The translations under genes were made by a program, and so were the position numbers. The notes beneath the pieces are model-generated. The model worked only from the letters and a program-made list of their open reading frames with translations, was not told where the DNA came from and did no database searches. This document shows, in pieces, positions 38,287-53,525 of a stretch of 57,780 bases of DNA (positions are counted from its first letter, which is position 1; each line of letters starts with the position of its first letter). The stretch comes from Nitrospinota bacterium (lineage in GTDB: Bacteria > UBA8248): positions 1 through 57,780 of the forward strand of contig JAZAHK010000033.1 in NCBI GenBank assembly GCA_036231405.1. Reading direction: 5' to 3'.

Positions 38287-38829
38287 TCAGGAACTATTAA
38301 CGATTTTTTCTTCAAAAGAAAGAAGGGTTTTTTTGTTAGTAATTCCAGCAGAAAAACCACCGAGTTCACCTGAACTCGATATTACTCGGTGTCAAGGAAC
38401 AAAAAGGAGAAAGGGGTTTCTACTCATTACCTGACCTACCGCTCGAAAAGACTTAGGATTTCCTGATTTTTTTGCCAGCCATGAATATGTCCTAGTTTCC
38501 CCAAAAGGAATTTGCCTTGCTTCTTTTAGAACTCGGCGTGAAAACTTGCTAACCTTACTGTAATCAAGTGGAGTAGAAAAAGATTTTCTTTTCCCCTGAA
38601 AATACTCCTCTAATTGAGTCTTTGCCTGTTCTATAAGATATTCACTGTCTCTTTTTTTCTTAGAATCTTCTGAAGAAACATCGTTGCTAAGTAGAATTGA
38701 ATCAATTCCATTAGAAGTTGCGGAAATGTAAATTTCATTTCTCATTTTTTCTAATGAAAAAAGAAACTTTTTTTTTCTTAATCGTTTAAAATTTAATTTT
38801 GTTTTTTTCAAAGGTGTTTTGTTTTTCAT
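38287..38829 (-). CDS. ogt: Methylated-DNA--protein-cysteine methyltransferase, putative selenoprotein (TGA at 38392-38394 read as Sec); 180 aa
   Basis: IPFGETRTY, RAVGQ...NP; reading through TGA gives VP-U-HRVISSSGELGGFSAGITNKKTLLSFEEKIVNSS*, restoring the PCHR motif and the family C-terminus. Confidence 0.88.
38361..38378 (-). promoter_or_regulatory. Putative bacterial SECIS hairpin of ogt
   Basis: Stem CGAGUUC/GAACUCG with loop AGGU starting 21 nt after the UGA. Confidence 0.65.
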
Positions 38830-38832
38830 TTT

Positions 38833-40029
38833 TTAAAATGCAGAAACCAAATCTTCAAGATGAGTTTTTCCAATTCTAAGACGTAACAACTGATTAGTAC
38901 CATCTGAATGAAGAAATGTACTCGCATCTCTAAGATATTTTTCCATTGGAGCAGACTGCATTATGCCTGCACCTCCAAAAATTTCTACTCCTAATCTTGC
39001 ACAATCAAAAGCTACTTCAGAAGCAAAAACCTTACATTTCCACCCTTGGGTGAAATCATAAGGCTTTTGGTTGTCCACTGACCACGCTGTCCTCAAAATA
39101 TAATTCCTCGCAATATCAATATTCATTGCCATATCTGCCAACATCATCTCTATAGCTTGATGTTTTCCAATAAGTTTCCCTCCTTGCACTCTTTCCCTTG
39201 CGTGCATTAAGGAATGCTCAAATGCTGCCCGCCCAACTCCCAAAGCAGTCGCAGCGGCCTCAGGTTTCCCCATTGCAAGAAGATTTCCTCTTATTTCAAA
39301 CATGCTACCTTCACCAAGAATAATATGATCTTCGGGAATCTCAACGTTGTCAAAAAAAATCTCCGAATTCATAGAAAGTCTCTGGCCAATTTTTTCATTA
39401 ACCTCGCCAATTGAAATGCCTTTTGTTTCTCTTGGAACAAGAAAACCAGAAAGACCTTCTCTTAAATTTTTTTCTTTATCTGTTCTGGCTGCGACTACAT
39501 ACAAAGAAGCTACCGGTCCATTACTTATATAGCGCTTTTGACCATTTATTATCCATTTTCCGTTTTTTTTATGAGCAACTGTATTTAGTTCAACGGAGAC
39601 ATCATCATAATACCCCTGATGATCGCTTCCACAGCCCGGTTCAGTCATTGGAATTGCAGCCAAAAACCTGGGCTCTTCACACAATCTTTTAAGCCAAGGA
39701 TCACGAACATGTTCTTCAATTTTTTCTAAAATATGTGCAAGTTTCCAGGTTTGATCAAGATTCACAGCAAAACCCAAATCCCCCACTGCTAACTCTTCGC
39801 CAGCTAGACAACACGTTATAACATCCCCATCTAAGCCTCCAAATTTTTCAGGATACGGTAGTTGTCTAAGCCCTAGTTTGCTGGCTTTTTCAGTTAAATC
39901 CCAGGGCATTCTTTTTTCCCATTCTAAAATTTTATCTCGTTCTACCGCTACAGGAGCGATTTCTTCATAAGAGAATTTTCGGGCAATTCCTTGAATTTTT
40001 TTTTGCTTTTCGGTTAAATTGAAATCCAT
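38833..40029 (-). CDS. Acyl-CoA dehydrogenase family protein
   Basis: MTEPGCGSD, INGQKRYISNG, RVQGG, FGGAG, EKYLRDA. Confidence 0.92.
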   Translation of the reverse strand: MDFNLTEKQKKIQGIARKFSYEEIAPVAVERDKILEWEKRMPWDLTEKASKLGLRQLPYPEKFGGLDGDVITCCLAGEELAVGDLGFAVNLDQTWKLAHILEKIEEHVRDPWLKRLCEEPRFLAAIPMTEPGCGSDHQGYYDDVSVELNTVAHKKNGKWIINGQKRYISNGPVASLYVVAARTDKEKNLREGLSGFLVPRETKGISIGEVNEKIGQRLSMNSEIFFDNVEIPEDHIILGEGSMFEIRGNLLAMGKPEAAATALGVGRAAFEHSLMHARERVQGGKLIGKHQAIEMMLADMAMNIDIARNYILRTAWSVDNQKPYDFTQGWKCKVFASEVAFDCARLGVEIFGGAGIMQSAPMEKYLRDASTFLHSDGTNQLLRLRIGKTHLEDLVSAF

Positions 40030-40055: not shown

Positions 40056-40844
40056 CTATTCCCCTTTAAAAGTTGGCTTTCGCTTTTCCTTAAATGCAAG
40101 CAAGGCTTCCTTAAAATCTTTTGTAAAATTAAGTGGTTTTCGTTTTTCATGCGAAAAATCTAGAGCTTCTTTATTTTTCATCCCAATAGTTTGATCAATT
40201 ACAGACTTTGCTCCTTGAACACCTAGAGGACCATTGTCTCGGATTTGTTCAGCCACCTTCATTACTTCATCTATTAAAATATCTTTTTCAAAAGAACGAT
40301 TAGCTAACCCTATACGCTCAGCTTCAACCCCGTCTATGGACTTACTCGTATAAATAAGTTCCTTAGCAAGGCCTATAGGAATTAAACGTTGGAGACGTAC
40401 AACACCTCCACCGCCTGGAAAAATACCTAATCTGCATTCTGGAAGACATAAAGTAGCTTCTTTTGAAACGAACCTAAAATCACATGCGAGAGTAATCTCA
40501 ACACCCCAACCAAAAGCATGACCATTAATAGCCGCTATCGTAGGCATAGGCAGTGATTCCCATAAGGAACTAGTCTTCATTGTATTGTCTTGGAATAAAT
40601 TTGCATCTTCCTTGCTATGATTAGCGCTTTCTTTAAGATCTCTTCCAGTACTAAAAGAACGTCCACTACCTGTTAAAATAACAACTCTAAGGCTTTTCTT
40701 TTCTGAGAGTTCTTTCGAAATTTCGCAAAATTCTTCACACAAATTCATTCCAATTGAATTTAAGCGTTCCGGCCGGTTTAAGGTAACAACTCCTATTCCG
40801 TCAGTTTCTTCATAGATAATTTCTTTATAGCTACCCAAAAACAT
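40056..40844 (-). CDS. Enoyl-CoA hydratase/isomerase
   Basis: LNRPERLN, PTIAAINGHAFGWGVE, PECRLG, KRKPTFKG. Confidence 0.92.
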   Translation of the reverse strand: MFLGSYKEIIYEETDGIGVVTLNRPERLNSIGMNLCEEFCEISKELSEKKSLRVVILTGSGRSFSTGRDLKESANHSKEDANLFQDNTMKTSSLWESLPMPTIAAINGHAFGWGVEITLACDFRFVSKEATLCLPECRLGIFPGGGGVVRLQRLIPIGLAKELIYTSKSIDGVEAERIGLANRSFEKDILIDEVMKVAEQIRDNGPLGVQGAKSVIDQTIGMKNKEALDFSHEKRKPLNFTKDFKEALLAFKEKRKPTFKGE

Positions 40845-40878: not shown

Positions 40879-41409
40879 CTATTTTACTATTTGGCTAACA
40901 ATTTGATCTACAAAATCAATAGTCACTTTTTGCATTTCGTTCACACTTAAATTACTAACAGGATGAGGTAATTGGACAAAATCATGTGCAGGCATCCCTT
41001 TTCCACGAAACTGAAACTCAGCAGCAGACTTGAATGCTTCGGTGATTATTGTGGTTGCAGGAATCCCGTTTTTTTCAAACTGAACGGTGTCATGCACACT
41101 GCACAACGTGCAGGAGCCTCAACCTCCTAATGCTGCAACTGCAACATCTACTTCTTTAGACATTTTTTCGATCATCTCATCAGGAGCAGGCTTAGAGTAA
41201 TGTTCTTTCCTTTTTATAATTACTTTGGAAACATCAAATCTTTTTCTTAATTGCTCTCCTAGAGTATCTAAAATAATATCTGCCTGCTCTTTCGTATTAT
41301 CTATCATTCCAACTACTTTTCCAGCTAAAGCGGAAGGCCTTTCTGCAAGATCTATTTTTTCACTACTACTTGAAGCGGTGGGATCAACAAAATGAATTTT
41401 CTCTTCCAT
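40879..41409 (-). CDS. UGSC-family putative selenoprotein (TGA at 41119-41121 read as Sec); joins two ORF-track entries into 176 aa
   Basis: 41409-41119 and 41106-40879 share a frame; the junction reads TTA GGA GGT TGA GGC TCC TGC ACG TTG TGC AGT = LGG-U-GSCTLCS. Confidence 0.88.
41089..41107 (-). promoter_or_regulatory. Putative SECIS hairpin of the UGSC gene
   Basis: Stem GUUGUGCA/UGCAUGAC (2 G-U pairs) with loop GUG starting 20 nt after the UGA. Confidence 0.55.
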
Positions 41410-52898: not shown

Positions 52899-53525
52899 TT
52901 ACCTTTTTCTAAATTTAAATATCTTTTTTTGTACAACTTTTTTTAAACGCTCGATAGATTTAGAACCTTCCATCTTACTCTCTCCGACAAAAAAAGTTGG
53001 GGTACCTCTTACACCTAAGCCTAATCCAAGATCTTTTGTTTTTTTAATTTTTTCTAAATAATTTCTCTTTTTAAGGCATTTTTCCCACGCAGTTAAATCT
53101 GCCCCGCTACTTTTTGCAAAAGATTTCCATAATGATTCAGGATACCGGCTAGTTCTCCATTTTTCTTGTTTCTTATAAATGAATCTACTCATTTCTTCTC
53201 TTTGGTTAGAATCTTTCACACACAAAACTGCTTCAGCAGCGCGAAAAGTCAATTCCGACAAAGGAAAGGGCAACTTCTTTACTAAGACACGGCCATCATA
53301 TTTTTTTACAATTTCTCGAAGTGCATCCTGCACAACAGCACAATCCGGTCAACCATAATCAGAAAATTCTAAAATACATATTTTATTAGGAGAACAAAGC
53401 TTTTTAATAAAAGGTTTTGGATTGTAACGTGCTCGCGTATAATAATTTATGAACCCAATTATGAAAAAAATAGCAACAATAAAAACAATTGGGGCTAACT
53501 TTATTTTAATGCCGAAAATAGTCAT
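52899..53525 (-). CDS. Membrane-anchored DsbA/thioredoxin-fold putative selenoprotein (UxxC; TGA at 53349-53351); 208 aa
   Basis: ATG at 53525 gives MTIFGIKIKLAPIVFIVAIFFIIGF (TM)...ILEFSDYG-U-PDCAVVQDAL..., in frame with the track ORF carrying FPL and GVRGTPTFFV. Confidence 0.88.
53321..53333 (-). promoter_or_regulatory. Putative SECIS hairpin of the DsbA-like gene
   Basis: Stem GUGCA/UGCAC with loop GGA starting 21 nt after the UGA. Confidence 0.55.

Follow-up and report, generated by a model that had tools for sequence, protein, structure and literature searches.

Most selenoproteins are redox catalysts in which one selenocysteine (Sec) turns over many times, whereas the DNA-repair alkyltransferase Ogt (MGMT) uses its acceptor residue once. 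What, then, does an in-frame TGA codon mean that sits in an ogt gene exactly where the alkyl-accepting cysteine belongs? The question is raised by a gene on the minus strand of the window, by which we mean the whole stretch of 57,780 nucleotides that was analysed. We conclude that this gene is very probably functional and that its single-turnover alkyl acceptor would be selenocysteine. Gene anatomy, family membership, the Sec machinery, the conservation of the TGA and of the codons downstream of it, and the covariation of a hairpin were observed directly; Sec insertion and repair activity are inferred.

Reading frame and family membership of ogt

The ogt coding sequence (38290..38829, minus strand) comprises 180 codons when its internal TGA is read through. 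It starts with ATG at 38829 and runs to the context GTT CCT TGA CAC CGA, in which the TGA is codon 146 (38392..38394, minus strand) and occupies the acceptor position of a P-x-H-R-V motif. It then continues with 34 sense codons, HRVISSSGELGGFSAGITNKKTLLSFEEKIVNSS, and ends at a terminal TGA (38287..38289, minus strand, read from 38289 to 38287). The choice of the start codon is uncertain. The ATG at 38829 lies 3 nt past the TAA of the upstream acyl-CoA dehydrogenase gene, and the N-terminal extension that follows from it is kept in the homologs P0002 and P0003; Met29 was chosen by one gene caller and is also where the homolog P0001 begins. TGA is an ordinary stop codon in this DNA, as it terminates 6 of the 35 stop-to-stop frames of at least 250 codons in the window.

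The family placement of the product was based on HMM matches and on matches to PDB sequences. The read-through product of 180 amino acids matched the C-terminal domain PF01035 (DNA_binding_1) with 102.1 bits (cut-off 27; E 1.5e-29) over residues 96-174, a range that spans the TGA, and the N-terminal domain PF02870 (Methyltransf_1N) with 31.3 bits (cut-off 21; E 3e-07) over residues 33-90. The ogt model TIGR00589 gave 95.3 bits against a cut-off of 46.4 (E 1.7e-27). The best matches among PDB sequences were the Cys-type Ogt proteins 4wxc and 4bhb (E about 1e-21), with codon 146 falling on their active-site Cys. Likewise, codon 146 fell in the invariant acceptor Cys column when the product was aligned with 49 full-length Cys homologs. 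The preliminary description had put the break of the open reading frame at CCT TGA CAC CGA on the acceptor Cys of the PCHR motif and had seen the family C-terminus completed by the 34 codons beyond it; both statements hold, since the TGA at 38394..38392 aligns on the acceptor Cys and the PF01035 match extends across it.

F96, G110, Y115, R129, N138, P145, C/U146, H147, R148, V149, I150, G158, G162, K166, L169, L170 and E173 are invariant in the 50 aligned sequences, and this list contains the complete set of DNA-binding and activation residues (Y115, R129, N138, H147, R148 and E173), which we take to be Tyr114, Arg128, Asn137, His146, Arg147 and Glu172 in the numbering of human AGT. With the Cys-type Ogt/MGMT proteins (4bhb and 4wxc, the C-terminal part of Ada in 1sfe, human AGT in 1eh6) the product has in common the two-domain architecture, the P-x-H-R-V motif and the Tyr, Arg-finger, Asn, His and Glu residues, and it presumably follows the same single-turnover chemistry. 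What sets it apart is the acceptor codon itself: the P-x-H-R-V motif is present with TGA and no Cys codon at the acceptor position, and the residue inserted at codon 146 would be Sec.

The TGA was compared with assemblies of other sequencing runs. Contigs of the runs X2, X3 and X4, which stem from three studies, cover 38392..38394 and show no difference from TGA, while nearby they carry strain differences, including a synonymous change of CGA to AGA one codon past the TGA. This comparison was made with DNA contigs, not raw reads, at a depth of 2.5-10, and one of the three runs may be the source of the window itself; run X1 had no coverage of the Sec codon. The TGA thus withstood the comparison with TGT and TGC that had been proposed for it, being kept in the contigs of all three runs. 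The terminal stop is polymorphic in the same material: it reads TGG in the contigs of X2 and X4, where the frame gains W-N-F before a TAA, and in these contigs the Sec codon is consequently the sole TGA left in ogt. RNA runs X18-X20 held about 0.07 of the sampled words.

Selenocysteine machinery and the hairpin behind the TGA

Insertion of Sec requires a dedicated machinery, and the preliminary description had named selA, selB, selC and selD as the genes to look for. All four were found in the genome to which the window belongs (2.09 Mb in 48 contigs, 91.9% complete). The tRNA-Sec scored 75 bits, has the anticodon tca, was called tRNA-SeC by ARAGORN and is the sole tRNA of this genome above the tRNA-Sec cut-off. 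SelA was found with 568.6 bits, SelB with 391.8 bits and SelD with 334.7 bits (locus L017, G000:C3:154791-155753, minus strand); selD itself has an in-frame TGA in the context KAGG-U-GSKIGP. Two further candidate selenoprotein genes lie in the window. A UGSC-family gene (40882..41409, minus strand; PF24696, E 3.7e-50) has its TGA at codon 97 in the context GG-U-GSC and is located on the same strand about 2.5 kb upstream of the ogt Sec codon, and a gene for a DsbA-like thioredoxin-fold protein (52902..53525, minus strand; PF13462, E 1.1e-21; PF01323, E 6.5e-17) has a TGA at codon 59 in a U-P-D-C motif. For MAGs labelled Nitrospinae or Nitrospinota that belong to the GTDB phylum UBA8248, Table 2 of the BSepDB paper gives 48-54 selenoprotein genes (PMC13326102); its main text and the consulted part of its supplement do not mention the methyltransferase. 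Cluster members of the Ogt proteins carry the label "Nitrospinae/Nitrospinota bacterium" in public sources, and the window may well belong to UBA8248, judging from the structure of its phylum, with 51 species in a single class.

A SECIS-type hairpin lies within the coding sequence, at 38359..38380 on the minus strand (9 bp), with a 7-bp core at 38361..38378. The core, CGAGUUC-AGGU-GAACUCG (38378..38361), begins 13 nt past the UGA and places the loop 20 nt from it; with an additional A-U and a U.G pair the stem grows to 9 bp (38380..38359) and begins 11 nt past the UGA. Folded alone, the hairpin reached -10.7 kcal/mol (z -4.29), and none of 200 shuffled sequences was as good. In contexts of 47 and 66 nt the z score was about -2, 6 and 7 of 200 shuffled sequences, respectively, did as well, and the minimum-energy folds of the 47-66 nt contexts pair otherwise than in the hairpin. 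Published criteria for bacterial SECIS elements, as given in a figure legend, are a loop of 3-9 nt, a stem of 4-16 bp, a G in the first two loop positions, a UGA-to-loop distance of 16-37 nt and a minimum free energy of at most -7.5 kcal/mol (PMC13188914, Fig. 2). The loop AGGU, the stem of 7-9 bp, the spacing of 20 nt and the energy of -10.7 kcal/mol all lie within these ranges. The earlier account of a 7-bp hairpin with a G-containing loop 3' of the TGA was accurate, and the suggested check for a bSECIS element also came out in its favour.

The stem also shows covariation. We aligned 27 Sec orthologs from the TGA on, which gave 60 gapless columns and 25 distinct rows. All seven pairs of the helix (columns 17-23 with 28-34) form in 100% of the cells of these 25 distinct rows. 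The pair 18-33 is GC in 20 rows, CG in 3 and AU in 2, and the pair 21-30 is CG in 19 and UA in 6; one further pair alternates between AU and GU, and four of the seven pairs are invariant across the Sec orthologs. The two compensatory pairs are located at third codon positions (Ser/Ala with Leu for 18-33, Ser/Gly with Glu for 21-30) and the changes are synonymous, so constraint on the protein does not explain them. None of 500 shuffles reached the observed score, a count that is not a probability because the sequences are related, and helices slid along the alignment as controls paired in only 26-52% of the cells. RNAalifold predicted the same helix. Since the two G's of the loop also begin a conserved Gly codon, they were given no credit as RNA features.

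In the Cys orthologs the hairpin is degraded: among 30 loci there are three of these, of which L021 retains 6 of 7 pairs and L029 retains 4, while L044 has a deletion at this place, so that the decay is seen in three sequences only. In family f4 of the phylum the active-site loop is S-R-G-D-L-R; there, the UGA is followed at a similar distance by another hairpin, whose loop is GGG. A search of the element against Rfam returned only two chance-level matches, which is as expected because Rfam has no family for the bacterial SECIS element. The hairpin followed by GGUUUUUCU (38358..38381, minus strand) also fits the pattern of an intrinsic terminator. In relatives, which read GGAUUCGC at this place, the U-run is shorter or absent; it is therefore probably a by-product of Phe and Ser codons in an AT-rich genome (35.7% G+C).

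The TGA with its element also distinguishes the gene from its better-known relatives. Cys-type Ogt/MGMT genes have TGC or TGT as the acceptor codon, in contrast to the TGA of the window's ogt with its SECIS stem in the codons of the active-site loop, S-S-G-E-L. The alkyltransferase-like (ATL) proteins (e.g., PDB 3gva) share the PF01035 fold with it and lack both the acceptor nucleophile and the N-terminal domain, whereas the window's ogt encodes two domains and has a TGA with a SECIS element at the acceptor. On these grounds, and because the match to 3gva is weak (E 1.1e-06), an assignment as ATL was rejected.

Distribution and history of the Sec form and its gene neighbourhood

The phylum was sampled with 51 species genomes from one class and four families (f1-f4), and 43 of them have TGA at the catalytic codon: 35 of 42 in f1, the single genome of f2, all 7 of f4 and none in the single genome of f3. 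Seven genomes have Cys codons only (G003, G005, G006, G009, G012, G013 and G038; TGC in G005 and G009), and one of the 51, G021, which is 67% complete, had no Ogt match. Counted by locus, the catalytic codon is TGA in 27 and TGC in 3 of the best 30 loci, and TGA in 16 and TGC or TGT in 4 of 20 further ones. The alternation of TGA and TGC in homologs, to which the preliminary description had pointed as a check, is thus real, with TGA and TGC/TGT exchanging at the same codon.

Protein databases reflect the TGA as a truncation. A protein search returned 957 homologs at E <= 1e-5, of which the closest four (P0002, P0003, P0005 and P0012; 51-78% identity) end in ...VP or ...IP, one residue short of the acceptor; P0004 (58% identity) goes on with CHRVISSSGELGGF. 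At the DNA level, 595 pairs drawn from 35 Sec orthologs gave a pN/pS of 0.31 in the 28 codons past the TGA and of 0.29 in the 50 codons preceding it, both values being uncorrected proportions with synonymous sites near saturation. Judged from these ratios, purifying selection is the same on either side of the TGA, and the decay 3' of the TGA that would have spoken against a selenoprotein is not seen in the relatives. Single lesions do occur. The Sec ortholog of G040 (L109, G040:C1) lacks one base of a G-run nine codons past the TGA, which may be an assembly error or decay, and the Cys ortholog of G009 (L120, G009:C1) has an apparent frameshift upstream of the active site. As the genomes of G040 and G009 come in one or two contigs, homopolymer errors are possible.

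Outside the phylum the Sec form appears to be scarce. When 350 genomes from other phyla were sampled, an in-frame TGA was found in 0 of 109 among the matches listed, and there were 281 weaker matches besides; this points to rarity rather than to absence of the Sec form elsewhere. A table of the Global Ocean Sampling (GOS) analysis, with 1 Sec versus 2,879 Cys sequences (PMC2398784), agrees with such rarity. A search of genome contigs gave 49 loci, all of them distant homologs from other phyla.

To follow the exchange of Sec and Cys, a quick tree was calculated from 113 columns with the catalytic residue masked. It comprised 47 of the 50 loci and 12 Cys homologs from outside; L109 had been removed by hand, and L024 and L117 by a filter. 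The Cys form of G003 falls within a clade with a support of 100 that contains two Sec forms of the same genus, and the Cys forms of G006 and G013 fall within an f1 clade with a support of 96, in which 31 of 33 rows are Sec. Cys forms are nested among Sec forms in the genera g1 and g7 and in G006, and the tree requires at least three Sec/Cys switches. The Cys forms of G012 and G038 group with the outside Cys sequences and are therefore probably different Ogt genes. Because the root and many forks of the tree have no firm order, gain and loss look alike on it and the direction of the switches is a matter of interpretation; the presence of Sec in three of the four families most likely reflects a gain early on and several later returns to Cys.

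The ogt gene closes a run of four genes that point the same way, being preceded by the UGSC-family selenoprotein gene, an enoyl-CoA hydratase gene (40056..40844, minus strand) and, directly upstream, a gene for an acyl-CoA dehydrogenase family protein of 398 amino acids (38833..40029, minus strand), with which it probably forms one operon. An acyl-CoA dehydrogenase gene adjoins the ogt ortholog in 21 of 30 loci. Across the genera g1 and g8 (loci L022-L049) the dehydrogenase is 75-91% identical, versus 36-61% for Ogt. One public source names the upstream dehydrogenase "alkylation response protein AidB-like." We rejected an identification as AidB, since the AidB model PRK11561, with a cut-off of 545, gave 25.7 bits and models for acyl-CoA dehydrogenases in general gave about 200; none of the NCBIfam equivalog models reached its cut-off with this protein.

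The Sec-ogt is the only PF01035 match that was found in the window's genome (91.9% complete). Most of the larger genomes of the family (G004-G036, G061-G065) have a second Ogt domain, which is of the Cys type (e.g., G025:C1:3509052-3509348). It is located at the end of an open frame of approximately 350-390 amino acids, a frame that may encode an Ada-like fusion; none was found in the window's genome.

Proposed mechanism, alternatives and previously predicted Sec-MGMT

In the mechanism that we propose, SelB carrying Sec-tRNA(Sec) with the anticodon UCA would bind the hairpin 11-13 nt past UGA146, within the codons for S-S-S-G-E-L-G, and would deliver Sec to the ribosome at UGA146, such that the full two-domain protein of 180 amino acids would be made. 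This protein would flip out O6-alkylguanine by means of Tyr115, Arg129, Asn138, His147, Arg148 and Glu173, and its selenolate would accept the alkyl group, leaving Se-alkyl-selenocysteine and a spent protein. Most likely, the benefit of Sec would be that the nucleophile is present in its ionised form at physiological pH and depends less on activating residues, in a lineage whose selenoproteome is already large.

Other readings of UGA146 have to be weighed against this one. The codon might be decoded as Cys or another residue, by the SECIS element and SelB or by near-cognate readthrough, either constitutively or only under selenium scarcity, and this would yield an ordinary Cys-Ogt. Cys can be inserted at Sec codons by Sec-like tRNAs or via thiophosphate; the product would work, since Cys is canonical at the acceptor position, and Sec and Cys codons do interchange within clades (g1, g7 and G006). 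Still, we consider Cys decoding very unlikely, because selA and a Sec-containing selD are present, only one tRNA lies above the tRNA-Sec cut-off, and TGA and hairpin have been kept in 43 of the 51 genomes though a one-base change to TGC would suffice. With the same protein just one base away, this retention is hard to explain if the codon is read as Cys. The probability is slightly lower again that translation mostly stops at UGA146 and that the 145-amino-acid product or termination itself is the functional output, for example as an acceptor-less damage-binding protein or as a selenium-sensing switch. Such an output would agree with the products of 144-150 amino acids recorded by public gene callers and with the terminator-like hairpin and U-run in the window's genome, but not with a stretch of 28 codons after the TGA that is as constrained as the 50 before it and contains the invariant residues H147, R148, G158, K166 and E173. 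The U-run, moreover, is not kept in the relatives, and in the ATL proteins, which are known to lack an acceptor, the C-terminal domain is complete and the match is far weaker (3gva, as above).

A third reading, in which the gene is decaying and its TGA arose by nonsense mutation or by faulty assembly, is already contradicted, and we regard it as extremely improbable. Seen in isolation, an in-frame stop would be suspect in an assembly of the metagenome type with 48 contigs, and the deletion in G040 and the frameshift-like lesion in G009 could be cited in favour of decay; however, TGA stands at this codon in 43 of 51 genomes, it is kept in contigs from three studies, purifying selection continues downstream of it and the hairpin covaries. 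Given these findings, it can be said with high confidence that the window's ogt is a genuine, conserved selenoprotein gene of a family that had already been predicted.

This family goes back to 2005, when CHY0809 of Carboxydothermus hydrogenoformans (ABB14497.1) was reported as a suicidal repair protein in which Sec replaces Cys; it was then the only Sec form known and was judged a very recent invention (PMC1287953). Two Sec-MGMT sequences followed from the metagenome of Olavius symbionts (PMC1976440), and Sec-MGMT is listed in reviews of 2022 (PMC9312934) and 2026 (PMC13188914). The preliminary description had presented Sec-MGMT as a purely computational prediction. This part stands, as Table 1 of the 2026 review has the family as "Predicted with high confidence" and not as "Experimentally verified" (PMC13188914), whereas the standing of the family was underrated, given that it has been in print since 2005 and that an AGT with Sec145 has been engineered. 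CHY0809 and the window's ogt are alike in belonging to PF01035, in having a UGA at the active-site Cys with a stem-loop after it and in being predicted from Sec/Cys homology, and the published definition of Sec-MGMT, a PF01035 protein with Sec at the acceptor position, describes the window's ogt as well, with Sec as the predicted residue. They differ in distribution: CHY0809 was the only Sec form known in 2005, whereas here the Sec form occurs in 43 of 51 genomes and three of four families of a different phylum.

That the chemistry is feasible can be taken from the engineered protein: E. coli without ada and ogt is protected from MNNG by human AGT carrying Sec145, and the N137A variant of this AGT is active with Sec and inactive with Cys (Haruna et al. 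2014, PMC4150793). In this construct Sec occupies the acceptor position, as it would in the window's Ogt. The engineered AGT is artificial, however, having its Sec inserted at UAG via EF-Tu and without a SECIS element, whereas the natural gene has UGA and a SECIS element; and the N137A variant lost the Asn that the natural Sec-Ogt proteins keep, N138 being invariant. In the openly accessible literature, we found neither a biochemical study of a natural Sec-Ogt nor a description of Sec-ogt in lineages named Nitrospin- or UBA8248. Relative to that literature, which has predicted Sec-MGMT as a selenoprotein family since 2005, the additions are the near-fixation of the Sec form across a phylum, its standing as the sole Ogt domain detected in a streamlined genome, covariation that supports a SECIS element made of codons of the active-site loop, and the within-genus pairs of Sec and Cys orthologs.

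That the Sec form is kept by 43 of 51 genomes and supplies the sole Ogt domain detected in a genome of 2.09 Mb points to sustained selection for a stoichiometric, non-redox use of Sec. The preliminary description had raised the rate of the reaction, recycling and selenium-dependent control of repair as possible consequences. A bolder proposal, to which we assign very little probability, is that Sec-Ogt is not a true suicide protein and that Se-alkyl-selenocysteine is dealkylated chemically or by a partner enzyme, with the protein or its selenium being regenerated. If this were true, a one-shot repair protein would become a recyclable one, which would explain why a costly residue is kept phylum-wide in a stoichiometric reagent that is the sole Ogt in small genomes. 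In a milder version, repair capacity may be tied to the selenium supply via UGA146. The locus also shows cleanly how the codons of an active-site loop can be shaped by an RNA element, here the SECIS. Since gene callers truncate the product at 144-150 amino acids, the repair capacity of these marine bacteria is under-annotated. The natural pairs of Sec and Cys orthologs, some of them within one genus, would allow a test of what Sec gains in the rate of alkyl transfer or in resistance to oxidation.
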